A DNA stretch of 63,237 bases, the filler included, from Hausera hauseri (lineage: Eukaryota), in NCBI GenBank assembly GCA_046269625.1. It is 13 parts of 13 records of this genome, joined end to end, with 100 filler letters (N's around TTAATTAATTAA, not from the genome) between each part and the next. Parts side by side here need not be neighbours in the genome. Positions count along the whole stretch, not along the records: positions 36,408 to 40,867 come from JBJURY010569561.1; 12 more parts are not named here. One strand, 5' to 3'. Position 1 is the stretch's first letter; every line of letters starts with the position of its first letter. Under the pieces are notes generated by a model. It searched no databases, was not told where the DNA came from, and saw only the letters and a program-made list of their open reading frames with translations. A program made the translations under genes and the position numbers. Shown here one piece after another: positions 20,188 through 56,814 of the stretch.

Positions 20188-23100
20188 ATGGATAAAGTAG
20201 CAGTATTGATTTTTTATTTAACTATATTTAAATATTTTTACAGTGCAAATTATATGTCCATTATTGAAATTCTATAATGCATGGTCCAGTTCAATGTCAC
20301 CAGATCGTGGAAAGCTATTACAAAATATGGAGAAACGGACTTATTACTTATGCTCCGAATGCCAATCTGTCAATGCTGTTTCGTATTTGTAATTTTTTGA
20401 ACAGCATAAGCGGCATTTAAGTCAGTTTAATGCATCATGCTCAAAGAAGCAAATGGCTCAATCAATCCAACCTCATGAAACAAACCAAATCTCGAAATCA
20501 GCGTCTTTCCCAACCTATCAAGAAGTGGAAAAATATTATTTAACGAGATTTAATGGATCAACTTACCATGTCTGCCGGAATTGTAAAAGTGTAAAAAATC
20601 TCAATTCTCTGACTTATAATCGCCACAAAGATCATCTTGCACGCTTCGAAACATTGAAATAACGTCATATTCTGTAAACATGCATGCAAACTACGCAGCC
20701 GTCAACCAGTACAGCGAACACGAGAATCACGGCAATCAAACATAAAACACAATCGAGTCCAAAACCCAGTAAAGTCCTTAGAGTTCGAGTAGCCTACAAA
20801 TATGCTATGAAACAAAGAGTGAAAGCGTTTTTCATCAAATCCTCCACAAACGCTCATACCCGGACAGTCGGTGAATTTATGGAATCTTGCCAGTGGGAGG
20901 TCTAAAGAATTTTACAGGATGAAGTAAATCATAACAATTCACATAAGGTAAACTTTTTTCCTTGAAGCATTGTTCCTTAATGTCGATGGTGAAACGACAC
21001 AACGGGCATTCAAACTATGAATATGCCGTACTTAAAAAACTGATTTACAGGATTTCATTGATGGTGAATTCCACAAATTAATTAATGAAGCTGGGGAAAG
21101 CGAAAGGAAGAACAGCGGATGGACGATATCTGCAATCCGACAGCTGAGTATTCGAGTAAGTATTCGCTAATAGGTGGTTCCTTTTATACACACAAAGTCT
21201 AACATACAAAGTCATGTATAAATTCGTAAAACTTTCAGGATACATTTTGCTTCAAGTATGCGGTCTTAACTAAACTACTGGTGGATCAAGACGTCACAAA
21301 TCAACACCGAGTCCAGTAATATGATAATTTAGAGCACTATTACGATTTCAACTGCATACTATATCCACCGAGTTTGTATTACATCAAGAAATCTGAGACA
21401 GTCAATATTACCTTTATCAACGCTTTTGGATAGATGAATTAAACAAAGTGTACCCAGTGAAGGTCTGCATTGAAGAAAAAGATGATCATAGAGACCTTCT
21501 CATATTCAGCACCGAAGATAGAAATGGAGAACGAAGCCATTTCTTGTACATACGCAGCATTGATGGATTGATTTGCTCCAAAGTGATGCGAAATGGGCAC
21601 CGTATATTCATTGGTAAAATGTGCATCATTCATTTTGATGACGAACAGAAAATGGAGGAACACAAAATCTACTGCATCCAAAATGTGTTTTGAGTTGGAT
21701 TTCCTGAGGAGGAAACGACTGAGTTTAAGGAATACGAGAAGACAAATCGCGTTCCTGTCATTGTGCACTGCGATTTTGAGTCAATTCCTCCACCAGTTCA
21801 TACATGTAATCCGCAGAATGACAAGTCCAGTACGACAATTATTCAGACACATGAAGCAATGTCTCTTTGTATGTTTGTCAAAGGATTCCAGCTCGAAGAA
21901 CCATACATATGCAGAGGCCCGGATGCAGCAAGGATTTCAATGAGAAGTTTGGTGCAAATTGCTAAAGACGTTGAAGATATGCCAGACAGATCGACGGACC
22001 TATTAACAAAAGAATAACGTGAGCAGTAAACGAGCGCAACAGAATGCTGTCCATATGAAAAATCGTTTGCCGTACAGAACGGAAAAGTCCTCGATCACTG
22101 TTATTTCACCGGCAAATATCGAGGTGCAATATGCAAGAACTGTAGCCTCCGTTTGCAAACGAGTCTGATTCATTCCGGTAGTTTTCCATATTCTGTCTGG
22201 ATACTACTCACATTCTTTTATTCGCGAATTGGGTGAGTCTCCAGGACAAATAACAGTTATACAACATAACCAAGAACGGTATATAACATTTACTAAATAC
22301 GTTGGAAAACAAATGCAACTTTGATTCATCAACAGCTACAAGTTCATGAGTAACAGTCTCGATGAACTCAGCAGAAACCTACCGGAAGATGGATTTACGA
22401 AAACAAGAATACATTTTTGAAATAGCCAGTTGTTCAGTCTAGTCAAGCGAAAAAGTGTATTCTCGCATGACTACATTACAGAGTGGGATAGGTTAGAAGA
22501 AACGTCACTGCCAGCTAAGAAATACTTTTTCAGCGGATTATACCAATTAGATATTTCAGATGAGGACTATGAACATGCACAAACGATGTGGCACGAATTC
22601 AATTTCCGAAACCTAGGTGAGTACAGTGACGTGTACTTGAAGACTGACGTACTGTTGCTCACTGATATATTTGAGAGATTCAGAGCTGTCACCATGGGCT
22701 CACACAAAGTAGATACGACACATTATTCCACCGCTCCTGGGATATCTTAGAGTGCAATGTTGAAACACACCAAGGTACAACTGCAGATAATCAGACACTT
22801 TAGCATGATTCTCATGATGGAGCACGGGATTCGTGGTGGACTGTGTCAAGTAGTCATTCCTTATGTTGAGGCCAACAATAAGCATATGGGTGAGAAGTAC
22901 GATGAAAATAAAGAGTCAAAGTACATCACATACCTGGATGCTTACAATCTCTGCGGATAGGCCATGTCCTACTACCTTCCGTATGGAGACTTCAGATGGA
23001 CAGAATGGGTCGACAACATGGATACGGACATAATGGTAATCAGTCCAACATCATCCACAGGGTATATATTTGAAGTGGATATTGAGTACCCTTCAAACTT

Positions 23101-24045
23101 ACATAAGCTATATGATTAGCTCCCATTTCTGCAAGAATCAGTTAAGACACCGAGCTGCAAAAGTGAAAAATTAAAAAAGTGATTCAACATCTCGGTAATC
23201 GACAAAGGTACGTTGTATACTGTAGACTACTTTAACAGACCATTCAACATGGGCTTAAAGTCACTGAAATCAGAAGGACATTGCAGTTCACTCAATCCTC
23301 CTGGCTAAAACCTTAAATTCAATTTAATACGGTGCTCCTAGCGTGCTGGAAACGATATTGATAAGGACCATTACAAGCTTTACAACAATGCCATGTTCGA
23401 GATGACGATGGACAATATACAAAACCGGCAAAATATCGAACTGGTTACCGAGTGGAAGCGAGCAAGAAAACTCATTAGTAAACCAACATTTCGAAATTAG
23501 GAAATCTACACGAAAAACCCTATCAGTATTGATTTCGGAAAAGACTGACTGAAATTCAGTAAACCAATGTCATATTATATATTTTAGATTTGAGCGAAAT
23601 ACTCATTTACGACTTCCATTATAAAACAAGGCTGCCCAGGTTTGACTTGGAAAATCTGCAATTACTGTACATGGATGCAGACTCACTCATGTATAGCATA
23701 AACACGAGGGATTTAATGGCGATGGCAGTAAACATGGACATGAGTGATTATCCAGCGAATCATCCGAATCACACATTAGTCAACAAAAACGTACGGCGAA
23801 AGTTTAAAGACGAGATGAACGGCTCAATAATCACACGATTCATGGGTCTCAGGCCAAAAATGTATGTGTTGATTGTCGGTAGTATCATTAAGAAGGTGTC
23901 TAGCGGGCGGTTGTGCGAAATCAATTAACGATGGATGACTATATTATAACACTACACGATAATCAGGTAAAAATTAATACAGTGCATTCAATCAGATCCC
24001 GTTCACGTATTGTAAACAGTGTACAGCTGCAGAAAATTATTTTGA
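20188..24045 (+). pseudogene. Near full-length decayed pPolB (Polinton/adintovirus type)
   Basis: NSGW, VHCDFES, LDHCYFTGKYRGAIC, RKSVFSHDY, YSDVYLKTDVLLLTDIFE, GIRGG, YLDAYNLCG*AMS, KLYNNAMF, LLYMDADSL, KFKDE, GLRPKMY; spliced 5' end (41-nt intron 20203-20243). Confidence 0.95.
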
Positions 24046-24145: not shown

Positions 24146-26400
24146 CGTTCGGTATTACTACCGGACCAGCCATATTTACAAGAATGATGAACAAAATGTT
24201 AATGGGATTGGATCATGCTTTTGCATACTTAGATGATGTACTGATAGCGTAAAGGACCGAAGAAGAACATTTAAAGGATATCGAACACACATTGATGAGA
24301 CTGGAACAAGCCGGATTGAAATTGAATCCAAAGAAATGCAAATGGGCTCAAAATGCCGTATCCTACCTTGGCCATATAGTTGGAGAAGGAAAATCGAAAC
24401 CAGATAAATCGTTATTAAACAAAATATCCGATTGCAGGGAACCACAAAACCAGAAAGAGTTAAGGCATTGGCTAGGATTATGCGGATATTACGCAACTTA
24501 TGTGCCGGATAATTCGAAGATTAATGCCCCCTTATATCGTCTACTGAAGAAAGAAATTAAATGAAAATGGACGTACGTCGAACAGAAAGCCTCTGATGAA
24601 ATGAAGAAGATATTAACCAGCGAACCCGTCTTACGATATCCAGATTTCAACTTACCTTTCATAATCAAGATAGACGCTAATAAAGAAGGCATTGGTTATG
24701 AATTAGCACAGAAAAGAGAAGATGAAGAATTAGAACACCCAATTGCTTTCGGAGGACGATCTTTGAAAAAAGCCGAGAAAAATTACTCTGTTACCGAGTT
24801 GGAAACTCTAGCTGTAAAGGAAGCACTTTGACACTTCAACGTTTACGTATATTGGCAGAAAATTATAATTGTCACTAATCACAAGGCTGTTACGACCTTA
24901 AAGTGACAAGCCAATAACCCGACATGTAGACTTAACAGATGGATCGAATAAATATTGAAATACAATACCGAATTCCAGTATAAGCCACGGAATAAACATG
25001 TAGATGCCGACGCCCTGTCCAGACTAAAGACCAAAACGAGCGCAATCACCGTAATGAAGAAAAGTCAACTCGAAGAAATAATAGATCGCCAACGCGCCTT
25101 AACGATGGATAAGGCCATTAAAATTTCAACAGAACACAAAAAGGATAAGGTCATCCAGCAGATTATAGAATTTGCTAAAAAGGATGTCCTACCAATAGGA
25201 CGACAGTTAAGGAAATATTTACACAGACACGGACATAAATATTGCGTATTAAATGACAAGAGCGACGAAGATATTTTATATTATGAGCGAAAAGGAAGAA
25301 AACTAATAGTTATTCCAAAAGGTTTACGAACCGAAGTGTCAATGTCAGAGCACGACTCGTACTTAGCCGGACACATATCCTGGAAAATGACATTAGAGAG
25401 GATAACGAATAAATACTTTTGGCCTAGTATTTATATTGATGTGAAGAACTGGGTAAATGCTTGTGAAGTATGTGCAACTAAGCAAAAGAAGATGAAAAAT
25501 TACATGGCCGAATTAAAGCCAATCGACGTACTTAATAGGCCAATGCAATCCATGTCGAAGGATATCGTAGAACCTCTTCCTACGATTCACAAAAATAATA
25601 AGTATATCTTGACGTGTATTGATCGACTAACTCATTTTGTTGAGTTGATAGCATTAATTGATCAAAAGGCCGTAACTTTAACAGAAGCCATAGTGAGACG
25701 AATCATTTGCCGATACGGACCCCCAGACCAAATACTCACAGATCGAGGGAGAAATTTTGCAAGTGAATTATTTGAGAAAATCACCAAAATATTTGAAATC
25801 GAACGATTAACGACCACTGCATATCATCCTCAGTGTAATGGAATGGTCGAACGGATGAATTCTACTGTCATACGTATACTGTCAACAGTAGTGGCTAAGG
25901 ACCAAAAAGATTGGGACGAAGTTTTAGAAGGAACTCAGTTTGCAATTAATACCACACCACATCCAGCAACGAGATTTACGCCATTCTTCATGATGTATGG
26001 GCGCAAAGCCGTGTTGCCCACGGACTTAGGAATGACGCCATACACAGACTTAGAACAAAACTTCGCAGAAGTGCTACAAACGCGATTACAAAAGTGTTGG
26101 GAAATTGCCAAAGAATTATCTCAAGAATACCAAGAGCAATTTAAAAAACAATATGACAAGAAAGCAAAACTACATAACTTGGAACAAGGAAATTGGGTTT
26201 ATGTGCATTATCCAGAAGCCAAAAAAGGCACCTCGCTGAAACTGACCCGTACAGGCAGAGGACCGTGCGAAGTGAGCAGAGTTACGCCAACTACAGTATA
26301 TATTAACAAAAACGGAAAGGAAGAAGTCGTATCAGTACAAAAAGTTGTCAAGACAGAGATACGGCCCAATAAACGTTACAATCTATGCTTACGAGAAGTA
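24146..26400 (+). mobile_element. Ty3/Gypsy pol (RT C-half, RNase H, integrase), with some stops
   Basis: PFG..AYLDDVLI, YLGHIV, LRYPDFNLPFIIKIDAN, NYSVTELETLA, ADALSR, HHCC (HDSYLAGH..CEVC), D-D35E core (TDRGRNF..QCNGMVERMN), GPC. Confidence 0.95.
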
Positions 26401-26419
26401 AAAACTTCCTCAATAATTG

Positions 26420-27836
26420 CCAGACCGATCTCGTACGTTCAGATAGTTTTAGCACTACCGTTAATTGCTTCTTATATTCCGAGAACACAAGCTCAATGGT
26501 GGCACGATGAGTCGACTCTAGGAGATATATACGGAATTCGGAAGAATGGATCAAGATCGGAAACTACCAAAACAGAAAAGAAACCAACAGCCGAACAAGT
26601 TCAAAAACAAGAAGACACCAAATTATTGCAATCAATGACAATTCATTATTATTCACCAAATTCCGTATGTGTTGGATTTAAGGCTTGGAAACCGCATCAC
26701 GACTTCGGAAGATTTCAAATTGTCTTACTTTACATAACCACAAAAAAGCGAAAAATTGTGATTTTGAACCTGGAGACTATATGCAGTGTTGCGACATAGA
26801 CTTTGGACGCACCTATAACCTCACCTATCGTCTATACTTACCAGGCTCATCCGAAATTTATATTGAAACTAAGCCACAATTTTAACTAGCCATCCCTGCA
26901 TGGAACAGACATCATGGAGTAAAACCTAATGAAATGTTACGATCCACTGACCCAGATATAAGAATATTAGACGAAAATATCCAGAGAATCTCTGTGAATA
27001 GGGAAAAACAATGCATTCAAGTAGATGCTAGAACAGGACTGACTCACAGTCAGGAAATCACTATCACAATTGAAGCAGCAATTGGACCAACTCCGAAAAT
27101 AGAATATTGTTCTATTCGTGCAGATGTGCAACACCCATGTTGTAAAATACCCGTGAACCAAGAATTCAAAATAAAATTTGACATATATGAAGTACGACCT
27201 AACAAACCAAGTTTACAACACCGAATTTATTATCCAGAAAATAAAATTTGGAAAATTTTAGTGGAAGCCATGACCAAGGAGTCGACCACTACGATTATTT
27301 CCTCTACTCGTACTGTTACAGCAAATAAAATGCCAAGAGCAGAATTGGAAAGCATATTGATCAAATTTACGGCACACCGATATAAAATCGCGTTCTTCGT
27401 GGAAAAGAAACAAAATTACGATATACACATAAGTTGTCGAACAACGCATAATAATCAAATTGTAATATTATCTAAAAACAATTATCAAACAGAATGCAAT
27501 TTACTAAAACCGCAATCCGAATACGTAATACAAGTACACGCACAGAACAAACAAACGCAAATAAGTACTTTGCATACCTTAGACGAAATTCGCGCGGAGT
27601 CACATACGCATGAAAATATAGACGACGAAACTACAACACATTTACTACTCGAGCACCACTAGGATTAACGGCCTTACCGATTGCATCTATTACAGTGCTG
27701 TCAACGTTTCTTCTCAATGTATTATTGCGATTTTTCGACTAGTTACCAAAAATTGTTATTCTAAGCGTCATAAAAATTCAGAATTGGAATTAAGGGAACT
27801 GGAAAACCTTGTGAATCCGTATAATAAAATAACCTG
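26420..27836 (+). pseudogene. Putative type I membrane protein with up to 3 FN3-like beta domains, starting in frame with integrase
   Basis: Signal-like ISYVQIVLALPLIASYIPRTQA, three Cys-containing beta-rich units (the last LKPQSEYVIQVHAQN, FN3-like), TM LTALPIASITVLSTFLLNVLL; broken by one frameshift and stops. Confidence 0.5.
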
Positions 27837-29697: not shown

Positions 29698-30281
29698 GAC
29701 CATGATGGCGCCCAAGTCCGCGGCACCATATATGGTCAAGAGATTTAGTTAAGCAATTAATTTTAGCTCGACCAAACAATTTCGAGACTGCATTGCAACT
29801 ATCAGAGAACTTAGAAATGGCACTAGATAGATATGCTAGACAGAACGATAGATATGACCGAAATAATGATCGTGATAATCGTGATAGAAATCGGAACAAT
29901 AAAAGATTTAACGATAATAATAAGGACAGAGGCTATGAGAATAAAGCTCAAAATGCTATTAATCGCAGTATGAGACATGATAATAGGAACTTCAGTGATA
30001 ATCGGAACACATATAATCCGTATAATAAAATAGGTTGTATTTTGGATAGGAACCAAAATAATGACCGAAGTAATAAGAATCGATATATAGATAATCGAAG
30101 TTTCGAAAATAGAAATAACGGAATCGATAAGCAAGCTCAACCAACTAAAAACAAAATAACGAGTAGACCCAAATCATCAGTAAATGAAGACGGACGACAA
30201 AGGATTGGCCGAGACGCAAATCTGATTTGTTACTCATGCGTTAAGGAAGTACATATAGCTAGATCGTGCCCTAACCCATGA
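29698..30281 (+). mobile_element. Retrotransposon Gag C-terminus with N/D/R-rich linker and CCHC zinc knuckle
   Basis: RPNNFETALQLSENLE (end of capsid region) and ICYSCVKEVHIARSCP. Confidence 0.85.
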
Positions 30282-30779
30282 AGTGTATCATTTTCAGAAA
30301 CCACTAAGGTTAGAACGATAAAGGATAATTTAGAAGGAATATATGGGAACGAGGTGACATAAGCATGATTATCGAGATGCAAAACCTACGAAGGTATATA
30401 AGAAATATGGGCGAATCCAATAATCCACAAGTAATCAAGGATAGAAAGGAGTACGAAGAAAATTTCAACTAATGGAAGTTTATTATGGATTGAGAGAACC
30501 AAAAACGGAATACGAGAATGCTATAGCACCTAGGAATACTCACATGGCCAGAAAGCAAAACCTAAATCAAGCAGCGAAATAGGAGAAAGAAGAAAAACAG
30601 ACTACGTCTGCAAGTGTAGACTTTGACGCAGATACCGAGGTCGCGTCTTAAAATAAGGGCAAAGCAACAGACAAGGTTGAGAGCGAATTCATTGATCCAT
30701 TAATACTTAAGATAACCAAAAATGGAGGTAGAAGCCCTTCTCTTAGGAACATGTCGGGAACTCGTTCACGATCCCCTAT

Positions 30780-33700
30780 TAAAATGAATTAGAAAAAGAA
30801 GACTTCATCATCACTTTAAGAGATGAAACGGAATTAAATACTCCTGTGATAACCCGAGGCGTTCTGGAAATAACAAGTACTTCGAATATCGACGAAATTA
30901 ATGAAACATGTCCGTTACCACATAGTGAAGAGAAACCAGAAGAGAAAAAATCTATTAAATTTGGGAAGATTAGAAAATCCTGGAAAAATGCAAACGAACT
31001 AAATAAAATAAGAGACACACAGAATGATCCTGGAAGGCTACATGAGAGCCTGCAAAAACTCCAACAAATGAGCAAACAGTTGGATATCTCCGGAAAAGAA
31101 CAGCAATTCATAGAAAAACTATATAAAGAGCTTAAAACCCGCCTTCCGAAAGAGGAAGAAAACATATTTCGCGAACTCCAAATGATGCCGCAAGCCTTGA
31201 TAGAAAGCTGGCAAAATAAATTGGAACTGTGGACAAGGAGTGGAATCGATTTTACGAAAGTTTGGTTGAATAGAAATGAGTCGTTCTTCGACCAGGTTAA
31301 TCAGGTGCAAGCACTATTTAACACACTAAAGGGCAACACAAAACTGAAACGCGCAAGGCGTAATTTAGAAGGATTGATACATGAGATCGAAGGCGCGATA
31401 ATTTCTTATTTTCACAACAAGCCAGTATATGAATTGACTAATGCTGATCTAGAAATATTAGGTATAGACCAAGTTGATATTCCCTCTTTATTAGCAATGT
31501 GCAGCCTGATAAAGGATAGCCCTCGACAATATCTAGATTTGGAAATACGCATTAAAAGAGAAAATGAAAAACGAACTAAAATCAACGACTTACGGATCGA
31601 TGTAGTCCACTCTAAAAAGGTAGAAGCACAGAGAATAATACGCCCTTGCCTTCTCGAATTAGATGAATATAAAGAAGAATTCAACTACATGAAACAGATC
31701 ATAAAATTTGTACAAGGACAGGATCACAAACTAAAAGAAGCTATTGAGACGTTAGATGAAATAATCTATGCTAAACCGGCAATATCGAAACAATTAAGGA
31801 AGTGAATAGATTTGTTACCTTCCATAGCCGGGATAATAAATGAAAGACTAAGGGAATTCGTTGTGGCTGAGCCTATAATGAGACACCAATTGGATGAAAT
31901 GTTACTGGATATTGGTACGATGGAAGACGAAGCGAAATTGCGAACTAAATTTGAATCATTCCGAGAATTGGAGTTTATGAGCCAGAATCAATATCTGACA
32001 ACGTTAACAGAAGTATACAGTATGATAGAGGAGAAGGAATTTTACAGAAAAAGAAACAAGCTAAGTGATCTTCATCGAAGTTTATCGAACATCCGTTGGG
32101 AGGGTATACAGAACCTAATACAGAAACCGTTGAAGGAAATCTCAGTACAGGAAATAGAAACGTTAGAAATATGTAATGATCACCGGATTGCTGTAGCACA
32201 AACACTACAGTATTTACATTGCCACACCGACCTAACGGAAATTAGGAAGGATCTTCAGTTGACGAGCGACGAAGCCAAGTTCATATGCAGGCTAATAGAC
32301 GCAATAGACCCGGACGCCGAAGTATTAAATCGAACGCATAAATTAATTCTATTATTAACAGAAATGGCAGAAGTTGACGAAGTAGTAGCGAAACGACTAG
32401 TAAATCAAATACGTCTAATAAAAGAAACCCGGTTACGCTCCGAGAAAAGACGGCGCGAACTAAATGAATTATTGAGGGATACAGAAGTCTATAAGGACAA
32501 ATATTCTCTTACGGAATCCGAAATGAATGACAAAATGGAATTCATACAAAGATGGCAAAGAGACAGAATCGCAGAAATAACTAGCTATCAAGAGAAAGCT
32601 CTGGTACAACCAGAAGAAATGTGCCGATTAATAATATAGATACAACAAGCATGCGGAAACGGAGACGGATTTAGGATATCCGTAATGAAAACAGTACAAC
32701 CGCAGATAAAAGAACTACGCGAAAGAGTCCAGGTTGGACATGCGGCACTAATAAACTACGAGTTACCTGACGCAGATAATAATGCCGGGTGGGATGAATA
32801 TCTTCAAGGTTTAACCAAGCAAAGTCAAGGAACCCCAATACAAATTCATGAGTCACCTACTGGTGCCCAGAAGATGAAATTTGACGTTCAAATGCTAGTT
32901 GATCCTGCGCTAGCTGAAAAGTAATTGAGCGGTATTTTGAAAATAAACATAAGTGAACATAAGTTAAGAAAATTTATTACAACCTTGACTAAGCTATTCA
33001 GCGAAAATACCGCATACAGCGCCGTACCCAAGCTCCTAATAAAAAAATACGCTAAACTATTGAAAAATAAACCGGAAGCGGAAATCAAAGTGAAGGTATC
33101 ATCCGAAGGGATGGACGATGAGGAATTTGAGTGCACTATCTGCATCACCGTTGCGTATATAAAACAACGGATAATGGATAAAGATGATAAAAATGTATTA
33201 ATTACCGACTCTATTTCAGAGGTAGAAGATTAGCCAAGCGAACTAAAGATGAAGCCATGAGGAAAGCGCATACAGAACATTGAGTTGGAAAAATCATGGG
33301 AATTCAGGATGCCGCAATGTATTTTAAATACTTACAGACTGATGACGACAAACCACATTACGATAAGAACTTAATTCGTCTAAGTGAAACTTTACCACCA
33401 ATGAAACCGAAGCGACCGGTTGGGAGACAGCGAAAAACAAAAGAAATTTATTAGAATGCAGACCTAATTAGGGAATTGAGACAACTATCGGTACCAACCT
33501 CGAGTTCGGATAACGAAGAACTAATCAAGCTAATGAGAGACTTAATTAGAATAGTCAATTATACTGGACTCCAAGGAGACATATTATCCGAGAACGAAAG
33601 ATTAATCTATAATATAGCCCGGATAATTAAAACTTTACGATTTAAATTATCTAAAAGCACTCTTTCTGACGAAACAGTGATCGATAGAATTATGATAGAC

Positions 33701-33920
33701 AATAAGATGGAGGAATTAAGGAAAGTATTGATATATTTAGCAGTAAGAACTAACCCACTTCGGGAAAACGAATTCGACAAGACAATCGGGTTAGCTAGAA
33801 AAGCTGAAAGAAGGGTACCTAAAGAAATAAAATGGACTAAATTATTTGAAAAAGAGGATAATACAAAAAGGGCTAATAAGTTAGAAGACATGATACGAAA
33901 TATCTCTCCAAACAAAGGAA
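30780..33920 (+). pseudogene. About 1000-aa alpha-helical/coiled-coil region of unknown function between Gag and glycoprotein
   Basis: ORFs 30846, 31812, 32685 and 32925 share one frame (also Gag's frame) and are separated by isolated stops; E/K/L/I-rich. Confidence 0.6.
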
Positions 33921-33929
33921 ACGAATCAA

Positions 33930-35760
33930 ATTGGTTAACCAACTTACTAACGATAATGATACTAGTAAAGCAGATAGGAGCCGTCACTATATATGACTGC
34001 GATAAATTCAAGGTAGGTCAGAAATATTCCCTGATGGACTTAGAAACATGTGAAGACGCGAGACCCCACAAGCTCGAGACGGTAGAAAGAAAATATATAC
34101 TATATCAACAACGGGAATTAATCGCAATGGATGCGATGGAATGCATGATCTGAAGATCTCGCAGTGTATTTCATTGTGGTAATATGCACGGGCATTATTC
34201 AATAATCAAACCAACCACACCACTAATCTCAATCAACGTGGATAGACAACAATGTTTAGGAGCCAGATTAACCAGTGAAATGGTTTGGGACGGCATGGAA
34301 TTAGAGGCCCAAGAAGGAAAGATAATTAGAGCCTACAAAGTGGCAGTCGAAAAACTAAACATGCACACCGATTACTGCGTCGGAGCAAAATATGATACAG
34401 GAAAAGGAAAAGAAGGAGGAATAGTAGTCGTAGATTTTTACAAAACCGAGTTAAGATTTCTAAAAGCAATGTTTCATAGCGTTACTAAATTATTTACCAA
34501 AAATCAGAAATGTCATATACAAGACGGCGCTTGCACGTTCCGAAGCTCAGCCGTTGTATGGAGCCCACCTTCAAAGAGAGAATGCAATTTCATCAAAATT
34601 AAGGAATTAAAATTTAATGAGACAACCGGAAAACGCTATACAAATAAATTACACACTAATACGAGATCAAGAGAATATGTAATAGAACACCCCACACCAA
34701 CCATATTGATATCGGATACACACGGGTTAAAGTTTATTAGAAATGATATGTTAACACGCTGCGATGTAGTTATGCATGCTACGAATTACGAAGCGTTTTT
34801 CGTAGCGAAACAGAAATTAACATAAAAACGTACGAATTAAAAACACAAGATGTGCGAATCGACGATTATCTCAAAAATTGAGACGACTATTTATATTATA
34901 AAGGACAAACCGGAATAGCAGAGCTATACCACAAAATGATAACAAATGACTACAGATTAGTTACTGAAGTCATGAAAACCAAACTGGCCTTAATTTATGC
35001 CAACCCAGAATTGGCATCACCAATTATACCAATAAAAGAAGGTGTCTTTGAATGAGTTACCGGAGAGGTCCTGTTAACTTACGAATGCAAAAAAAGAGAT
35101 GTGCCGATCAACGTGGAAGAGAAAAGATGTATGAAGAATTACCAGTCATCTATGAAAATATGCCGAGGCTAGCGATGCCACTTACTAGGGTACTACTCGC
35201 AAACTCGACGGAGCCAACAATACTGAAGGAATGCAAAACGAGTCTGGGTGAACCTATGTTTCTCCTTAGTGAAACAGATTGGATAAGTTTGTCTAATGAA
35301 GGTGCCGCTACCACCCCTAGTAAGCTAACTGGAACACATCTAATCAAGGGATTATCGGAAGAGAAGTTCGAAGACACGGCCAATAAAGGAATTTAGAGGC
35401 CAAAGGACATAAAAGCCTTTAGGCAATTCTTGGCCTTTCCACGGCAACGAACTTATGAGCTGAATCGGGACATGTCAGTGGTGATGGACGACACCCGCTT
35501 TCAAGTAAAATGGGAAACATTACTCGGCGCTAACCATTATCAAAGAGTAACTTCGGAAATATTATATAAGATTTGGGGAAGATTTCTGATCTTCGGACAA
35601 GCTGCATCCGGATTCCTAGCCATCTACATTTTAGTTCAGTTAGTCAAAGCAGTAATCCAAGGTGTTATAAATGGATATAAAATATTCACATTAACAGGAT
35701 TTTTCTGCAAAATTTTAACTGCGATCATCACACCTTTTGGAAAAAAGCCTAAGGCCTAAG
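33930..35760 (+). pseudogene. Chuvirus (Jingchuvirales)-type class III fusion glycoprotein / env
   Basis: Signal WLTNLLTIMILVKQIGA, then IYDC..YSLMDLETC..LYQ..MECMI..FHCG.MHGH, LALIYANP..TGEVLLTYEC, YEELPV..PLTRVL, KGI..FLAFP, and TM WGRFLIFGQAASGFLAIYILVQLVK. Confidence 0.85.
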
Positions 35761-36407: not shown

Positions 36408-36528
36408 CCACAATATGCACACTCGAATAGATCTTCTCGTTGTTTCATTTTTTCGACGAGGTAGCACAATGGGCAGGAATTCTCTTCTTCATTATAAGCT
36501 GCTGTAAGTTTCTTGCAGATGGCACAGC
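36408..36528 (-). CDS. Exon encoding a CX2C-X13-CX2C zinc finger (E1A-CR3-like), running off the contig
   Basis: Acceptor TTTTAG at 36529; (G)CAICKKLTAAYNEEENSCPLCYLVEK. Confidence 0.5.
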
Positions 36529-36623
36529 CTAAAACTATTGCTATTTAATTTATTGAATTATCACTCAATTATCCATTTCTCTAATAGTTAATAATGCAAG
36601 AAAAATAAACATATATTATGATT

Positions 36624-39267
36624 TCATATTTCCATATATACAAGTCCATTTGGGCCAACTATATACAAATCAGCTGGATAATCGTTAGTTGCAACAGTTG
36701 TCTCTTCTTCTATTGTTATAGTTTCTTCTTCGTCGTCATCAAGTAAGACAACAACGGTAACATCCCACATCCTATAACTGGATATCTTCCGTCGACAAAA
36801 CGGGCAACTTTGGCACTTTGAGAGCCATGTATCTGCACATCGCGTACACATATAATGTGTACACCGGAATAGGGCATACTTAAGACCCAAATTCTTAAAA
36901 CATATTGGGCATTCTTCCTGCTGCTTGTCTAAAATAATTAAACCTTTTAATTATTATTCAGAATTATGTATCTGAAAATAATGTTTCCTCACAACAATAG
37001 ATACTATCAAATTCATAGTGCTCCTCACTCGGGGCACCAGTTTATATGTTACTATCTATTTGGTATTGCGTCGGTGATTATGTGTTATACATGTTCTTTC
37101 TTGGTACAGTAACATATAAATGTTCATTGCTGTATCTAAAGGGGAGTCCGATGGCGGTTCGGTATGTAAAATATACCTGCGCCTATTATCTGTCAGAGTT
37201 CGTGGAGATGCCCTATATTATAGCTTGTTTCTTTGGAGCATTGATGTTTATAATATCTGAACTTTGGTTAGTAATACCCTAGCTCCATTCCTATGATATT
37301 TCAATCTACGCATTAATTCTGCCATATTCACTTTTATAACTTCATCATCCCTACACATTATTCGTCTGATTGTCTCGAGATCAAGTCTTCATAAACACTA
37401 AACTTGCCTGTATAAATTTCATATTGCTCTACCGTCATCAAGGTCATGTAATTCAATTTTCTAGCTTTATAAACCCAGTGCTGAGTTTTTAGTCAGGATG
37501 CTTCGTACACACATTTATTTGAACACAATCTAATTTCTTTAAATAAAGTACTTCATTGAGATCTTCATCCTGAAAGGGAATTCGGATTTCTAATTATAAC
37601 TAGAATTTATTTCTACTAGAGCAGATCTATCTCCGAAATTAGAAACAATAAACTTTTGCAGACTGTGCATCATCTATTAGATATTGGTGACATGGTATTA
37701 TTTCCATCCATCTGAATATTATGTTTTTTGTATCTTACTATTGTTATGACATTTTACTTTGGCGATTCATATATATATTCTATTAATGATTCTAGTACCT
37801 AGAACCTGGGTTTCGTATTCTATCTGTATTAAATATTTTTCCATTTTCCTCTATAAATGGGTATAAATCGCATCTCTCCCTATAAAATTAATATTTTATC
37901 TCTTTTAAATCCTTTATACTACGGATGTTGTTACTAATTACCGAAATAGGCCTGTTATTATTATTATTGTCACGTATTTATTCTGTCTCGTAAGTACAAT
38001 ATATCATATCGAAATATACGATGGACAGTCGACCAGTATTTTGCGCAATTCTATTGTCTGAACGAACACTTCATCTCATGATTCATCGCACATTCGTTTT
38101 ATATTCTGATGTATATTTAAGCATAAACTTTCCACGATTCAACATCAAATCGAATAGACGTACTTTATTTTATACAATCTCAAGATATATTCATCCTTAC
38201 ACAAAGTTAGTTTATTGATTAGTAAGTACCATATGGTCACAAACCATGCATACGTCGTGATTATCAGTAAATACTCTTTTTCACAGATCATATCCTTATT
38301 ATCACCTGATGCAAAATTATAATATTATCTATATGAAGGGGTCGCACATCCATTATACTCATTATTTACACTATGATATTCACCCGTTGTAATACTTTAT
38401 CCTGGTAAACTCTATATAACATAATAACTCATCGTTTTTATTTTCATTCTCTTAATCAATCATAAAAATTTTTAAATTTCCGATAATTATTATAATCTCC
38501 AGGGTACCATCGAATATATACCACTTTGAATTACTACACAGATACCATTAACGTCACTCGGAACAATATTAATATATAAAACCGCCATTAACACTTTCAA
38601 CACGCTATAATTTAACCCTTATTAAGATAAATATCATTAGACCATAAGACATACGATTATAGGAAATGTTCGTCAAATTTATATGAATTAATAATTTCAT
38701 TCAATAAGCTGTAAAACAAGGTACCAACACCTCTATCTTCACACTCCAATTCCCAGCCATACCAACAACTAATCAATACCACCGTTGTTTCACAACTCCA
38801 CCCGTCTGTTGAACTGAAAGAATATTCGGCGTACTTGTGACCTCTATACTCATTATCGGAGAATTGTAATTCCTTAGTATATTCAGTCTCCGGTTCAGGT
38901 TCTCTGTAGGGCCCTCAGGAGAGTCCGTCATCAATTATATTCAATGCTCTGATGTATTGGTGCTTCCGTCATAATCTGTCGGTACATATGGTATCACATA
39001 CATCACGAATTTAGCCATTCTGACATTCATAGTTGTTTTACTAGACACGTTAGTTAACGTCGTTTTACCTTACCATTCCAGCCTCGAAGTTCCACAGCAT
39101 TTCATATCTTTGTTTTCGTATTCTCTCTCTCGATTCATATCTATCTTTGTATTCCGCAAATATTTAATATATCAAAATTGTATTTTAACACAATACTTTA
39201 CATCGATAACATAATAAAATAAAACAATTGACAACTCACCATTATCAAAAGAATTTGCTTCAGCCAT
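36624..39267 (-). CDS. Spliced C3HC4 RING-finger protein (leader exon 39267-39240 plus exon 36928-36624)
   Basis: MAEANSFDN-G|GTGAGT joins in phase to TTTTAG|AC, giving DKQQEECPICFKN..CTHYMCTRC..CPFCRR and an acidic tail. The RING itself is firm; the leader pairing is inferred. Confidence 0.7.
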
Positions 39268-39528
39268 TTATCAATTTATTGTTCAAATCGTCAAAGGTAA
39301 GCTCAATGTGGAATTTATTAGGATTATTCGTCAATGGTCGAATATACAATTTCTTCAAATGATTCTCTGTGCTCGTCTTTGTCGTCTTAGTATTTCTTAA
39401 ATTTATATGTTTCAGTTGTAAAATATGAGAAACTTACCTACAAGTTCTCCTGGAAATTTGGTACGTCAACTGATAGTAAAATTTCAGGTTTGATAGTAAA
39501 ATTCTGTGTGTTGTTTGTGAATGCTTCG

Positions 39529-40095
39529 ACTATTTATATGTGTGGGTTTGTTTATAATTTTTATTTTCAAATTCAAAGTTCATGCTAGTGACGTCAATTT
39601 TAAATTCAAGGTTTATACTAATGACGTCAATTTTAAATTCGAAGTTCAATCTGTTGATTATTCATACGATTAAGTTCATGAAAAATCAAAATTCAATCTG
39701 TTGATTCTGAAAAACCAGTGATTCATACAATTAAGTTCATGGACTTTTCAAAATTAAAACCAGTGATTTATTGACGATTTGTGAAAAGTTGAAAACTGAT
39801 GACGATTTTAAAATTAAAATTAAAGATTAATTTAAATTCTATTCGACTAACTCGCAAAAAATGAGCAAAATAATTTGTATTTTTTCAAACTAATTTATAT
39901 TTTTGGTGGTTGCAATTGTAGAGCAAGGCTCACAAGTAACTTTACAGTTGACAGCATAATAAAAACGCCCATTATAGAGGCTCGACAACATATACACAAG
40001 AAAGGGGTCAATATCATCAATAATGTTAATCAATGGGTCAATATTGTCAATAATCAATCAATTCAGTATTGTCAATAATCAATGTCAATATGTCA
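39529..40095 (-). promoter_or_regulatory. Repeat-rich enhancer/promoter and candidate element terminus
   Basis: TATAAATA at about 39530-39538; two 33-bp repeats, each with TGACGTCA (39589, 39622); further AAGTTCA/CTGTTGATT repeats; ATTGA-rich array at 40008-40095. Confidence 0.55.
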
Positions 40096-40121
40096 CCTCG
40101 TGTCACACACATAAACACAAC

Positions 40122-40576
40122 CTGCATTCGGACACAGGCTCCGGCTCTGGCTCAGGCGGGGCCCACGGTGTCTCAACTGGACTGGGGCTGTCTGAATCAC
40201 TGATTATGTATGCGACATAGAAAAATCAATAACATTTTTCACAGAGCTGCAAAAGAGAAAGAACTGTCAGGGAACGTCGGCGTCCGCGCCCTCCTCACCT
40301 GTGAGGCATCATCTTTTCTGTCGTCAGCCCATCCGTCATGGTGACGCTCCGACGCTTGATGTACGCCCCCCTCTGGCTGGATGGCGAGTATGCGGAGCTG
40401 TGCTTGCTGTTGGACAGGGCAAAGGTCGCCTCCAGGTAGCGCAGAGGTAGAGTCCTGCTGACGGGACAGTAGATGTGGGCCCCGCTGGACTGGGAGACCA
40501 CTTTGCGTTGACCCACGTAGAAGCGGACGAGCTCCTGGACCGAGTCGAAGCTGTCTGACTCCAGAACGTACTGCAC
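40122..40576 (-). CDS. sh2d3c: Two exons (40576-40299 and 40199-40122) of a vertebrate, teleost-like SH2D3C/NSP-family adaptor
   Basis: VQYVLESDSFDSVQELVRFYVGQRKVVSQSSGAHIYCPVSRTLPLRYLEA..KRRSVTMTDGLT (SH2 C-end of the NSP family); GC-rich codons; canonical splice sites in phase. Confidence 0.85.
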
Positions 40577-40967
40577 CTGAAAAACCAGGATGGAGAGGAA
40601 ACGTAACTTTATTCACATATTTTAATTGTGTTTGCAACAAACCCAAACTTTGGTTTAGAGACTTTAGCTCAGATCTTAACACACCTGTTACACATGATGA
40701 TCAGATTGTAAATAAATAATATAGTTTTCTGCGAATTTTAGGTAAACTTCACTCAGAATTCCAAACTGAACTAAGGCATTAACGTTATTAGTTACACCCC
40801 GTACTTTTGGTAATGAGCAACTTAAAGCTAATTTATTTGAGCTTCTTACTGTGAAATCTGGATGGATNNNNNNNNNNNNNNNNNNNNNNNNNNNNNNNNN
40901 NNNNNNNNNNNTTAATTAATTAANNNNNNNNNNNNNNNNNNNNNNNNNNNNNNNNNNNNNNNNNNNN

Positions 40968-43545
40968 TAGTCACCGCATGGTCTAAAAGTACCGTCCTTT
41001 TTTGTACAACGTGTAACGGTGATGACCAAGGAGATTTGGAACGGAGTACTATGCCGAAACGTTCTAGTTTAAGAAATTCAGCTTCTACGGCCTGTCTACG
41101 ACGAGGTGACAGAGGTCGTACTTCTTGGCGTACTGGACGTTGGTGATGTGTGACTATGTGGTGTAAAGTGTTGTTTGCGGGAGTAAAAGTACGGTGTTTT
41201 TTCAGCACGCGTGGACATGATTTGTTGACGAATTGATGTAACGTTGTAGGTAGCTGTGAGAGATTCGGTGAAAGTGGTAAAACGGTTTGAATAGTAGCGG
41301 ATGCCCTTTGTGAGTTGTTTTGTGATGTGAAGTTAAGTGGTATTTGGTGTAAGATTGTCGAATTGAAAATTGTGTTGGATGAAGTATTTTTGTCGAATGA
41401 GCTAACGTTGGTGGCAGTGCCACAATTATCGACATCGAACCTCGATCGTATATCAGTATTGTTATATAAAAATTTTCAAATAGAATTATTGTTATAAAAA
41501 ATCGAATTATGCATTGACTTTTTAAGATTGACTTCCGCATTCCGGTTTACTTCGTGGTAGTCTAAATGCTATTTACATGTTCAGAAATGTCATCAGTGGT
41601 GCCGTTCCTCAAACATTGTTGGCTGCAGTCAACCAGTAAATTATAGTGTGAGAGAAAGAGGGATCCTAGAATTGCCGTCTGGACGTTAGCTATTGTGAAC
41701 GTCCAGTGGAAAGGTGTAGTAAAATTTGGTAAAGTGGAAGATAATTTAGCCATGCCAGAAATGTGTAGCGGTTGACATGAAGCTGTGTATAAAGGCTTAA
41801 GTTTGAGTGGAGAGTTTTGTACAGGAAAGGTTTGCGGTAATAAAGAAATCGCTGCACCTGTATCTATGATGAAGTCAACAGATTGCGCTGTAGGAGCAGT
41901 GATTGCAGCCTTTAGAGTAAAGACAGCAAAAGAGACGTGTCGGCGTTCAGAATGTGAAGTATTGCCATTGCCAGAGTTTTCCGTGACTTCGGGCGGCGAA
42001 TTTAGTTTTTTTTGGAAGAGTGAATTAGGACGACTATGAGAAGGAAAGGCAGTACGTCCGTCGTTCGTATTGGATTTGAAAGTACAGCCTGGAATACATT
42101 TACGAGCTTGATGTTTGAACCTTGCATGGTAAATGCAAATAACGGTGTCCGAAGAAAAATTCTTATCACAAAACTTGCACCCTAGGCAGCACTTCTGAGC
42201 ATTAGTGCTAAATCTGCTGTGGTAATAGCAGATCGACGAACGCACAGGCGATGGTGAGCGGTTTCTTGACGCAGAACGGGGTGCGGTCAGCAGCAAAACC
42301 TCCTCGGCGGGACAGAAACAATTTGTTTAAATTATTATTGATGTTGTTGATTGTTGCACATTGTGAAATGTTTTTGGCACGTAGCTGATTAAGTTTTTGT
42401 TTTATGTATGTATTATCATTAGTGGCAACTGCTGCTGAAACGACTGGCGGAGAATTTACGTGTAGGACATCATGTGTCCTATCGGCTAATTCGGCCAATT
42501 TCTCAAGCGGTGTGGAGTACCCCACCACGGTAAGTAGAGCCCGGCTTTGGATAGGTAGCGAATTAAGAAAATAGTGGCGCAGTAGTTCTGGGTTGTGCTC
42601 TTTAGTGATGCCGAGGGTATGGAGATGCGCTAAGGATGTACGTAAGAATTCGGATGCCCGTTGGGTACCTATAACGTTGTTGTGGAAGAAACGCTGGATG
42701 ATCGTAACCATGGAAGATTCTGTGATCTTAAGAACTGAGTTAGAAAGTTGGGAATATGGGTCTGGAAGTTGAAAGATTTCGATGATATTATGAATGCGGG
42801 CCTTGATGTTATTAGGCAGCCAAAGTTGGTGGAATTGCAACCAAGTTTTGCTAGAGCCTTGGTTGTCGATGAAAAACTTGGTGCAATTAAGGAAAGGAGC
42901 TGAAGAGGTAATAGGTGAGATGTTGCTAGCAGAGTTAGGAGTCGGCTTTTGGAGTAATATGAAAGGTATTGGTTTTTTCGGTGGTTTTATCCCTGTGTCA
43001 GTAGTTGGCGAAGAGTTCATGCCACCACGGATACAGAGATGTATGTGCAGGCAAGTGTGGCTTGAGGAAAATGGTAGGGTTCCGGTGAGAGGTATGATAG
43101 CGCCGTTATAGGTGAGATAAAAATTGGAAGAATTAAATAAGGAAGAAATGAAGGTCCGAAGGGTGGAATGTGTGGATTCATGTAGTGAGGGTATAAATGT
43201 GTTGTGGAGAAAAAAGAAAATAGAAGGGGAAGGAGTGGTACGCCTGGGGGCGTGATGTGGGACCGACACGAAAGGCGCCGTGCGACCGACCGGCGCAGGG
43301 TTGACGGTCGGGACCTCCGCCCCGGTGGGGCGGGCACCAAAGTGCAGGGTGGTTGAGTTTCCCCTCAAATCGCGCAATATCGGAATGTCATCTTCGTATT
43401 CCGTTTGTATTGATTTACTATGGCTTACATTCGGTAAATACGTCTGCTTGTTTAATTGGTGTTGCACGTTTTGTAGTGGTAATATTCGATTGTAAAACGA
43501 TTGAAATGAGCGCATAGGGGTCAATAGGTGTAATTTCAGATACAT
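40968..43545 (-). mobile_element. Ty3/Gypsy element A: Ubl-Gag (DUF7041-like), tandem CxxH..C..C fingers, aspartic protease, RT N-terminus
   Basis: Gag PDPYSQL..IGTQRASEFLR..FLNSLP..LEKLAELAD; ICYYHSRF..AQKC..C and a second copy; FIIDTGAAISLLP..ILGS; RT SKSPWSSPLHVVQK/DGTFRPCGD. Confidence 0.9.
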
Positions 43546-43719
43546 CGGAGACCCGAATCTTCCAACGATTGCCTATCTACATATATGCGAAGGAATTTCG
43601 GGAATTATTTAGACAAATAACTTATCATTTAAAATAAACTGAACTGAAATGATTTCATTGTTTATGAACAAATTACAAATATCGCTATGGATAGAAACGT
43701 TATTGATGATAATTTCATG

Positions 43720-44954
43720 TCCCGGTGCACCTAGAGCGATTTCAAACGGTTTGTTCTTGAAATTAATAACACGAAATCCGGTTAATTGTGCCTGAATTAC
43801 TATTTCACAGAATTTTAAGTGAAGATTTTTCGAGTGAAATCAAACGGCACGGACTTTAACATTCATAGAAATACAAGGCTGAATACGATTCAAGTAAAGT
43901 TTATATTCGTCCCCGTCAAGAGTAATTTCGTCGTCTATTACGGCAGAATAGAAAAACTTAAGCAGGCGTGGATCGGTGCCGATACAAGGGAAAAATGGAT
44001 AATCTGGAATGTCCAATTTCCATAAATTCTGGAAATTATTATTAACTTCTTTGTACAACTCGTGAGTCATGTTAATGCCAAACTTGATTGATTTCGCCGA
44101 TTCATAATAACTATCAACACTTTTCACCGCTGAATCATTATTAAAACTGAAGGATTTTAATTTTTCGTCAATTCTAGCCAATAGTGAGTGAGAAAAATAA
44201 CAATCCCATGATTTTCTTTTCGCTTGAACGTTTTCACCCAAAATATGAAATGCTGATTGACGCCATAAGGGGTTGCACATAAACGTATAAAATGCATTTA
44301 AACAGAGCCATATCCAAAGTAAAAACTGCCCACCAACATAATTTGCTAAACTAAAATCAACCGGCAATATTTGCAACGATTTCGAAGTTAAAATGCTTTG
44401 ATAATACGTAACTAAACCTTTAATTTCACGTGAAATCAGTGAAATTCGCATTAACGTACCTAACATTAAAAACGAATTGACAAGAAAAATTTGGAAATTG
44501 ATCCTTCTAAAGTAATTGGCATATACGTAAAAAGTAAAATTACCATTTGCAATATTGGATTATATGGCGTCTCAACAGTACTTTTAATGTGGTAATTTAA
44601 AACGTTTTGTAATATAACGCATAAAACGGCTACCATTGACAGTTTGACCTGGTGATTGTGATTTTCAAAGAACATAGTCAGCGTAAATAACAATAATAAA
44701 GTGAACAACGTAACCGACTGTCCTAAGGACGAGTAATAATTCTGAACGACAAACGTTGATAAAAAAACGATATCGAGAAAAACTAAAACAATAAGCAGTA
44801 TCAAACTTTTTCGTTGAAGAACTCCAAAATATGGTCGTGATAATTCCAAATAATATTCTTCAATTAATTTGGATGTAAAATAGCAATTTTTAAGAGCTGA
44901 AAAAAGATCTCTGATCCAATTCGACTTTTTAGATGCAGCAGTACTGTCCATCAT
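43720..44954 (-). pseudogene. Multi-pass membrane protein resembling the N-terminal TM half of a transmembrane adenylyl cyclase
   Basis: FTSKLIEEYY followed by about 6 TM helices, RQSAF after the last TM, and a weak C1a-like FHSKNL..VIQAQLTGF after an in-frame TGA; needs a 44-nt GA..AG intron. Confidence 0.45.
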
Positions 44955-45379
44955 TTTTTCGTGATAGTATTGTTATGGCTTAAATAACACTGGTAGTATT
45001 TCCTGATACCAATTTGTTATTAAATGATAAATATCTGCAACAAGAGAATAATCCAAACGATTGTAATCACCTAATTTATGAAGTGATCAAATAAATATCC
45101 GGTACGTGAAATGATTCGAAATTCAAAATAAAACAAACGTTAACTATGGCTAATTGAGAAATGAAATTCAAAATATCCAAAATGGCAAAAAATCAATTGC
45201 TTTATTTAAATTACATTACATCTNNNNNNNNNNNNNNNNNNNNNNNNNNNNNNNNNNNNNNNNNNNNTTAATTAATTAANNNNNNNNNNNNNNNNNNNNN
45301 NNNNNNNNNNNNNNNNNNNNNNNAGTTGCCCGTCAAATCATGATCTTTGAGCATTTATCTTGATAAAAGAATATAAACG

Positions 45380-54059: not shown

Positions 54060-55765
54060 AAACTTATCTGGCAAGTTGGTGAATGTAAAAGTCAATTCCA
54101 TGGTTCCTGCAACGTGCAACGGTTGATCATTGGCAATGAGAAGCGGTGGACAGGAAATCATAGTCAATGTAGGAACAAAGGACAAGGGAAGGAGCAAAAT
54201 GGCAGCTCTTGTGTCTACAAGGAAGTCGATATGTGAAGTATCTCTGCATAACAGTAGAGCTTTAAACAGAAATACTGCAGAAGCGGTGTTGAAACGGCCA
54301 GAAGATTGAGCGATATTGCCTGCGCAAGAATGTGCAGTAAAATCTGGCGGCATTATTAGTTTTTTGAAGGTTTTGGAGAAAAGGAAGAAGAGGAAGAAAA
54401 GCGAGGAAATTTATCGTTGTAATTTTTACAACCAGGCACACATGATCTAGCCTGTGACTCGAACTTATTGTGATAGGCGCAAATACGGTTGTCCACAGCG
54501 TACCGTTCGCTGTAAAACCGACAGCCCAAAAAGCATTTCCTAGCATCCATTCGAAATCGCGTGTGATAGAAGTACGTCATGCGTCCGCCAGGTAAAATGG
54601 ATCGAGTAGAGTATCTGGAAATGCTTTTCTCCCTTGAAGATCTGGTTTCACTTTGTCGAGGCCCATTAAGATTATTTACTTGGGTAGTAATGTCCGAAAT
54701 CGACTGCTATAACTTGTCAAACTGTTGCTGCATTATTTGCAATTTTTGAGTAAAAAATGTTGTGTCTGTAGTTGGAGCACATGTGGTTGCAGCCGCAATA
54801 GGGAGAGAACTGCTGGTATGAAGAATCCCAAAGAATTTGTCAGCCATTATTGCCAGTTTTTTGGTAGCAGTGGACTTGTCGAAAACGACGAGCAAAGCTC
54901 TGATTTAGGTACGCAAAGAAGATAAGAAATAACGGCGAATTAAATCCGCGTTATTCTTAGGTGTTACTTCTAGAGTGCTAAGCTGCAGAATGGCCGTTTG
55001 CAGAAAATCGGATGGCTTTTGGCTTCCTATCGCGTTGTCGTTAAAATACTCTTGTATTATATTGTCAATCGAAGGATCCGTGACATGCAGTACAGCTTCA
55101 CAGATTGTCTCGTAAGGTGTCGAAGATTGTAGCAGCTCGGCGATATTATTAATCTTTTGCTTGACGTTGGCAGGCAGAAGAATTAAAAGGCTATTGGCTC
55201 GCACAAACGAATTTGTGATGTTGTTCGATTTTAGACACTGTTGGTGGAATTGGAACCATAGTTTGCTGGAGTTGCTTTTATCAATGAAAAATTCCACACA
55301 AGGCAAATTTAACAAAGCGCGTGATTGTTGGGGGTGTGGCAAACGATAGACGTTGCCTGTATTCGTGGATTTATCATCCGAGAAAGATTGGTTTGAGTCC
55401 GATTTACCCCGAAGGCGAAGATGGAGCACCAGGAGGATGATGGGACGTTCGTGGCATGTGAAAGGCAAAAGGGAGTTGGAAGGATGTATTATAAGCCCCT
55501 GATATGTGAAATAGAAATCAGAAGTGTTACATGATGAGGACAAAGCGTTATATAAGAACTGTGCTGTCTCGTTGAGTGGAGCTTTTAAGGTTGTAATGTG
55601 TTGATTGTAGCTAAAGACCAGGAAAGATAATTGTAATGAGCTCATCCCAGGGGAATGAAGAAATGCACGGGGGGATTGGGCGGTTACCTTTTGGGTTAAG
55701 AAGTGGTTCGAGCGTACAGCCTGGATAGCGGTGGCAAGTATTGATTGTGATGAAAGAATACCCAA
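54060..55765 (-). mobile_element. Ty3/Gypsy element B: Ubl-Gag, tandem Zn fingers, -1 slippery site, protease
   Basis: LWFQF..LLPANVKQKI..TPYE..IGSQKPSDFL..YFLSSL..KLAIMAD; FYHTRF..ARKC..C and CAYHNKF..ARSC..C; A AAA AAC TAA at 54365-54356; FLVDTRAA. Confidence 0.9.
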
Positions 55766-55777
55766 GGTTTTTGAGCT

Positions 55778-56290: not shown

Positions 56291-56814
56291 GTTAAGCCAT
56301 GGCCACTCATTAAATAATCCAAGTTTTTCAGTCGTTATCGGACTACTGTTCTTAATAGTTTAGGGAGTAGGACATGCACCTCAATCACCTCATTCGTGCT
56401 GTCGGTTAGTGAATTTGTTGTTGATTCGCCCTTAATTCGTGGTGAAATATTTTTGTCACTGTCCATTTTCGACTTCGTTACTCGATCATTCTCGGCTTCA
56501 CTCTCCTTTTTAACGTCACTTATAATCTGTGAATTCTTTTTTGGCCTACCTCCCGGCTTCTGTGTGTACAGTTTCAGTATTTAAATGCTTCGGTGCTTTG
56601 GATAAAGACTCGGGTTCTATCTTTTTTATATTACAAACTTCACCAGTAAAATCCGTATTTGAGCACTTCAATCTTATTGAAAAAGTATTACTTTCTTTTA
56701 ATTTGCAGCGCCTCAACTTTGGTCCAGGACAATTTAGAATTGTCGAGCTTATTGTCGAACCACTGTCTCCAGAAACACGACGTACAAACACAAGTGGAGA
56801 CGACATAGGTAAAA

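Follow-up and report, generated by a model that had tools for sequence, protein, structure and literature searches.

In foamy viruses, splicing proceeds from a donor situated upstream of the primer-binding site (PBS). Among LTR retroelements, Ogre retrotransposons and the foamy-like endogenous retroviruses (ERVs) of fish have LTRs of several kb and extra ORFs, and the Burro elements of planarians, which are giant Ty3/Gypsy elements, bear RING-type, BIR and BCL2 modules together with an upstream accessory ORF (PMC6431247). The locus described below can be likened to Burro by its layout, being likewise a putative LTR retroelement with a RING-type module; in Burro, however, these and other ubiquitin and apoptosis modules, some of them in the upstream accessory ORF, mostly form part of a single very large polyprotein, whereas at our locus small phase-1 exons follow the PBS directly, and gag-pol is not seen. 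The resemblance to Ogre and to the foamy-like ERVs is also one of layout, the 3-kb LTR of our element being a proposed one.

A second group of described systems comes from DNA viruses. The oncoids of adintoviruses (Mavericks) are a class defined by motifs only (10.1101/2024.03.25.586562, PMC13696692), namely an LXCXE word just before a CK2 site and beside paired CxxC, usually upstream of PolB (PMC8502044). The locus shares with them an LxCxE-like word close to paired CxxC, but it has I for L and no CK2 site, the motif and the cysteines lie in separate frames, no PolB is linked and a PBS stands upstream. An original prediction, made from the DNA alone, had read this locus as an alternatively spliced early region of an endogenous DNA virus; the PBS, the multi-copy state and the fish exons (40576–40122) were all absent from it. 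Among the papers retrieved by literature searches, titles and opening lines of abstracts gave no description of the layout reported here.

The contig and its features

The window, i.e., the whole 63,237-nt stretch of Hausera hauseri DNA that was analysed, consists of 13 short contigs separated by N spacers, and the locus sits on one of them (36408–40867, 4.46 kb). The remaining contigs are AT-rich and CpG-undepleted, and contain Gypsy integrase, fusion-glycoprotein, DDE and PolB-like pieces as well as a divergent BIG1 gene; contig 36408–40867 has no similarity to any of them, including those with PolB. The element is known from this one short, possibly chimeric contig, in which an Rfam search gave no match. 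The motifs named in the original prediction (CRE words, TATA, donors, leader exon, IxCxE, RING and CxxC pairs) are all in place, and are listed here with the other features:

40299–40576, minus strand: fish sh2d3c(a) exon, end of the SH2 domain; 97–98% aa identity to poeciliid/anablepid SH2D3C
40122–40199, minus strand: the following short sh2d3c exon (SDSDSPSP...VSEC), an insert also seen in Gambusia isoform P0013
39540–39990, minus strand: AT-rich promoter region with short tandem duplications; possible 5′ end of an LTR, with TGTT at 39990; summed depth 44–85 in the public run X1 described below
39565–39630, minus strand: 33-nt tandem duplication, each unit with one CRE-type word, TGACGTCA
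39533–39556, minus strand: two TATAAA words, at 39556 and 39538; start site predicted near 39524
39432–39437, minus strand: splice donor GTAAGT, the highest-scoring donor of the element
39240–39267, minus strand: candidate 28-nt ATG mini-exon of phase 1 (MAEANSFDN and one further nt), with donor GTGAGT immediately after it
37190–39239, minus strand: low-copy middle without family match, likely an intron or a variable LTR body
37047–37187, minus strand: non-coding block shared by the family, ending in GTAACA, with several small indels among copies
37022–37039, minus strand: PBS, 18/18 complementary to the 3′ end of tRNA-Met(CAT), including CCA
36970–37008, minus strand: DSIYCCEETLFSD (IxCxE), in a short, stop-bounded frame of 25 codons without ATG
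36624–36928, minus strand: RING exon, phase 1; C3HC4 RING with the usual Trp and a post-Cys Arg, and an acidic tail that leads to the stop
36408–36528, minus strand: Cys-rich exon, phase 1; CxxC-13-CxxC-14-CxxC, cut by the contig end

A primer-binding site in a multi-copy family

Judged by its complementarity, the word at 37039–37022 serves as a primer-binding site, a feature by which LTR elements copied through reverse transcription are recognised. The word is a perfect 18-nt complement to all six tRNA-Met genes found (6/6), the match being exactly 18 nt in each, and the probability of such a match by chance is about 2e-7, allowing for 60 tRNAs. For comparison, a published HIV construct primed by tRNA-Met has a PBS that differs at two of the 18 places (PMC1084362). 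An LTR-type end, GTAACA, with CA as its final letters, occupies 37052–37047 on the minus strand, 7 nt before the PBS, which in turn stands about 95 nt ahead of the RING acceptor. The 15-nt core of the PBS occurs in at least 119 metagenome loci; those listed include six tRNA-Met genes and eight loci with a TGG extension, of which six have AACA before the PBS, as here, and one leads into a PNMA/gag-like ORF after it (E=0.007, a weak match). Scans of viral and metagenome contigs with the PBS word and with the LTR-end word gave no exact match. The stretch ahead of the PBS was no more similar to seven of seven other Met-PBS LTR ends than were shuffled sequences, which counts against the retroelement reading.

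The family-shared block preceding the PBS (37187–37047) has no frame bias. Candidate starts for the LTR are 39990, 37276 or 37114, and neither an LTR twin nor a target-site duplication was found on the 4.46-kb contig; gag, pol, env and integrase were also absent from it, including the 614 nt available behind the PBS. Since the contig lacks all of these, it does not itself establish the superfamily. Membership in Ty3/Gypsy is likely.

Two public runs, X1 and X2, contain the stretch, both as contigs and neither recorded as RNA; X1, possibly the source sample itself, is not independent. In X1, a single multi-copy family includes the PBS junction and both exons, RING and Cys-rich, and the LTR-end/PBS junction is common to many other contigs; of the LTR, only the end is seen. 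Summed depth in X1, which is not copy number, is 94–1230 over 36408–37189, with 32,510 at the LTR-end/PBS word, and falls to 11–41 beyond 37190, being 9–38 in the middle and 35–85 in the promoter. The step is sharp, at ca. 37189, and the copies diverge upstream of ca. 37185. Additionally, the loose ends in X1 show that the LTR-end/PBS word is common to elements that differ on either side of it. One X1 contig, with a depth of 4.72, aligns to the RING at about 80% identity (46 differences in 233); a joint whose depth is likewise 4.72 ties it to 37019 onward, jumping the IxCxE interval. Taking the identity of this contig from depth and breakpoint, the copy appears to have kept PBS and RING together, with an IxCxE interval that does not align.

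The position of the exons directly behind a perfect PBS favours accessory genes of a retroelement over a DNA-virus early region. We thus read the RING and Cys-rich exons, with a confidence somewhat better than even, as accessory genes of a multi-copy, Ty3/Gypsy-like LTR retroelement, predicted to be spliced from the ATG mini-exon across the PBS.

The RING exon

The RING exon matches Pfam PF13920 (E=1.8e-9), with PF00097 also above the cut-off, and follows the ligand pattern C-x2-C-x12-C-x-H-x2-C-x2-C-x10-C-x2-C. Comparison with PDB retrieved 60 RING chains at E<=1e-3, all of them generic RING matches; the structure model had a pLDDT of 34.5. Its acceptor, at 36928, is the third of 210 AG sites by a simple score. 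Silent and replacement differences were counted for the 40 of 87 copy differences that are listed, at sites that are non-independent; among the 18 listed for the RING exon there were 13 silent and five replacement differences, against 31% silent expected (p=4e-4). The RING exon is likely under purifying selection across copies and would code for a putative E3 ligase.

No homologue was found at E<=1e-3 among five candidates of 59–189 aa and 85 of 190–2000 aa, in a word-limited search that is weak evidence, and scans of viral contigs with the RING, one read-through frame and an 85-codon ORF gave no loci. The view that the RING is not an ordinary host gene holds in so far as none of the candidates of 59–2000 aa is a relative. 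The nearest Atlas clusters with recorded taxa are proteins of large DNA viruses, which is a lead, and counts against the retroelement reading, as do the PolB-like fragments elsewhere in the window.

Transitions make up 50 of the 54 listed differences between copies. This pattern bears on whether the locus could belong to a multigene family of the host, specific to its lineage, in which cassettes of RING and zinc-finger exons, with an intronic LTR remnant, were multiplied by segmental duplication. Introns, a conventional Pol II promoter, the selection on the RING and its generic matches would all suit a host family, and yet no relative appears among the candidates, and so many transitions are what a young dispersed repeat would show. 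Solo-LTR remnants, moreover, do not usually consist of an LTR end followed by an intact 18-nt PBS with no retroviral sequence beyond. We regard a host family as improbable.

The IxCxE interval and the cysteine-rich exon

The interval between the PBS and the RING exon contains IYCCE followed by ETLFSD, with I in place of L and without the CK2 pattern (S/T)xx(D/E). A word of the form [LI]xCxE was present in 307 of 500 shuffles, which is chance level. The IxCxE word and the paired CxxC are in different frames with a stop between them, and no canonical donor follows IxCxE in this copy. On these points, the Rb-binding module put forward for this interval is not upheld. Nevertheless, the listed copy differences in the IxCxE frame are three silent and no replacement (p=0.04, apparently from one haplotype), which favours some coding role for it.

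The Cys-rich exon was originally taken for an E1A-like zinc finger. Its CxxC-13-CxxC arrangement, found in one of 500 shuffles, has the spacing of CR3 in adenovirus E1A (CR2/CR3), and an aromatic residue follows in both. Unlike E1A, the exon has a third CxxC, and since this runs to the contig end the exon is probably part of a larger zinc domain. There was no Pfam E1A match at E<=1, and a phmmer search of 1.84 billion proteins with the frame holding the exon found no homologue, the exon being diluted in a 297-residue query. All Atlas matches were under 0.9, and no fold match was obtained in BFVD (E>=8.9; single-sequence model with pLDDT 69.5, a 39-residue query of little power). Given the third CxxC and the lack of any match to an E1A family, a homologue or a viral fold, the E1A assignment is not supported. 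The listed copy differences, three silent and four replacement, have no bias. Two candidates were rejected in the course of these searches: the single phmmer match, a tandem-repeat junk protein aligning to a non-coding stretch, and a likeness to p300 TAZ2 at E=0.25.

A rival reading is that of a DNA virus, either as the alternatively spliced oncoid or early cassette of a Maverick (adintovirus) or as that of another endogenous DNA virus, a fragment of LTR end and PBS having been caught before amplification. Such a cassette would account for the rare CxxC-13-CxxC, for its E1A CR3 spacing, for the CRE and TATA promoter and for the viral neighbours of the RING in Atlas; PolB-type fragments do occur on other contigs (PF03175, E=2.4e-4, below the cut-off), and IxCxE lies near CxxC pairs as in oncoids (PMC8502044). 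However, PolB, rve integrase, capsid and packaging ATPase were not found in six frames of the contig, which covers one side of the element, nor is there similarity to the PolB contigs; the sole mobile-element hallmark is the retroelement PBS, which appears retained beside the RING in the 80%-identical copy. The substitution of I for L, the lack of (S/T)xx(D/E) and of a canonical donor, the third CxxC, and the failure to match an E1A family, homologue or fold also count against it. An endogenous DNA virus, as originally predicted, is therefore unlikely in our judgement.

Promoter, mini-exon and middle region

The two TGACGTCA words lie at 39629 and 39596 on the minus strand, and the window has three matches to this word compared with a mean of 0.91 in shuffles. 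The CRE repeats of the original prediction are thus present as two words, but both derive from the one 33-nt tandem duplication. Of all GT sites in 36408–40100, those at 39437 and 39239 score highest as donors. Both phase-1 acceptors are likewise there, that of the zinc finger (36528) ranking only 79th of the 210 AG sites by the simple score. Neither the RING exon nor the Cys-rich exon includes a start codon, so that both need a phase-1 upstream exon, for which the mini-exon is a candidate. Among 15 candidate acceptors, open frames of 25 or more codons numbered 4, 4 and 3 in phases 0, 1 and 2, so that phase 1 is not enriched, a point against the retroelement reading.

The 2-kb middle was described originally as 2.3 kb of decayed coding-like DNA, which is not borne out overall: its 3-base periodicity (39240–37190) was reached by 118 of 300 shuffles and its minus-strand stops (173) are like those of shuffles (181.5±8.5). 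Only between 39140 and 38390 is one frame stop-poor, with 10 stops against 17 and 32 in the other frames. There are perhaps small exons in the middle, e.g., behind a phase-1 acceptor at 38305 that would open 52 codons. Searches of Pfam and NCBIfam in six frames, with X at stops, gave no match in the middle, and in X1 it is covered by pieces without mismatches.

The depth of promoter and middle, far below that of the RING exon, speaks against a long LTR shared by the family, unless such an LTR diverges fast; the step at 37189 accordingly argues for a separate neighbour or for fast-diverging LTRs. A composite origin has thus to be considered, in which promoter and mini-exon come from a separate low-copy gene or element, a short-LTR element that carries both exons lies in an intron of the latter, and the shared leader is coincidental. 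The sharp step, the different upstream sequences of other copies and a 7-bp inverted pair flanking the 68-nt segment 37114–37047 are all consistent with it, and both acceptors would be in phase 1 by chance about once in nine times. Its difficulty is that a different start exon would be required, and around the PBS no such exon with a strong donor was found. This composite, a tentative possibility to which we give some weight but well short of half, overlaps the accessory-gene reading on the identity of the exons and differs from it only in the mode of expression.

Fish exons at the end of the contig

The sh2d3c exons are, by their protein identity, part of a host gene and outside the element. 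Three versions of the fish exon occur in X2, departing from the contig at ca. 40101, and the element is represented there only by patchy, low-depth pieces; X1 covers the element and not the fish exons, a gap that may be a filter effect. The CpG ratio is 1.05 in the element, 1.02 in the other contigs and 0.75 in the fish part. In a test of CpG context bearing on the host, the count was 15 of 50 transitions against 17% expected, and the GpC control was similar (13 of 50 against 15%). The coverage and the CpG ratios fit a chimeric join between fish DNA and a repeat of an AT-rich organism; a true insertion of the element in a fish sh2d3c intron is also conceivable. Between the fish intron and the promoter there are 110 nt (39990–40100) of degenerate repeats of 21–30 nt. 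The presence of intact poeciliid sh2d3c exons in an otherwise AT-rich, non-fish assembly would be contamination, a chimera or an insertion site.

Other elements in the window and in metagenomes

Several other contigs of the window carry pieces of probable mobile elements. Broken PolB-like frames at 8294–10078 and 21439–23928 (plus strand), 23–27% identical to each other, suggest decayed Mavericks, and upstream of the first of these regions, at 6233–7891, there are small Cys-containing ORFs of no assigned kind. Positions 24176–26799 (plus) hold a fragment of Gypsy-type RT and a 615-codon frame with integrase domains, with further ORFs to 29591. At 29706–35759 (plus), long frames with coiled coils and zinc knuckles precede a broken fusion glycoprotein of Monjiviricetes type; the glycoprotein match (PF24664, E ~0.005) is below the cut-off, and the whole may be an LTR element with an env gene. 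Positions 40968–45223 and 54060–59025 (minus) each hold a Gypsy gag-protease element, the two being related (34–48% aa); one adjoins a BIG1/DCB gene whose frame is broken by a single base within an A-run, and the other an exon that resembles adenylate cyclase. A minisatellite of 7.4 copies of 26 nt is found at 17439–17632.

In the metagenomes, loci L009, L025, L033, L044 and L097 have a conserved motif block 90–200 nt before the same Met PBS. Three of them (L009, L025 and L044) have a related 180-codon ORF just upstream, without Pfam family, and in L025 and L044 the sequence after the PBS contains no gag; the five are possibly an undescribed LTR family in tandem arrangement. At locus L096 (minus, 301–315), this 18-nt complement of tRNA-Met immediately precedes a GC-rich ORF that resembles a response regulator; it may mark a prokaryotic integration site or be a chance match.

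Discussion

The evidence supports a mobile, multi-copy, virus-like accessory module. In the retroelement reading, the exons would sit at the 5′ end of the internal region of an LTR element, and, more tentatively, the CRE/TATA promoter and the mini-exon may form the 5′ part of an LTR of about 3 kb (39990–37047). Unspliced RNA would keep the PBS and be reverse-transcribed, with gag-pol further downstream or supplied in trans, and RNA spliced from the mini-exon would drop the PBS and yield a small ubiquitin ligase or zinc-binding protein. These spliced products may serve to blunt host restriction or cell-death responses.

A more ambitious version holds that a ca. 3-kb LTR has a CRE-driven mini-exon spliced across the PBS to a menu of phase-1 exons, which would encode an E3 ligase, a peptide that binds Rb and a transactivator of E1A type. 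The retroelement would thereby have converged on the oncoprotein toolkit of small DNA tumour viruses, or have captured it from Mavericks, and would be truly inserted in the fish sh2d3c intron. We consider this whole chain very doubtful, and the oncoprotein part of the picture is weak.

LTR retroelements with extra ORFs are already known. Spliced accessory exons straight behind the PBS, under purifying selection and with no relative found among billions of proteins, would represent a layout not yet described, in which a retroelement keeps a ubiquitin ligase that acts on its host. Should the IxCxE word and the zinc finger also prove functional, the oncoid idea would extend from DNA viruses to retroelements.
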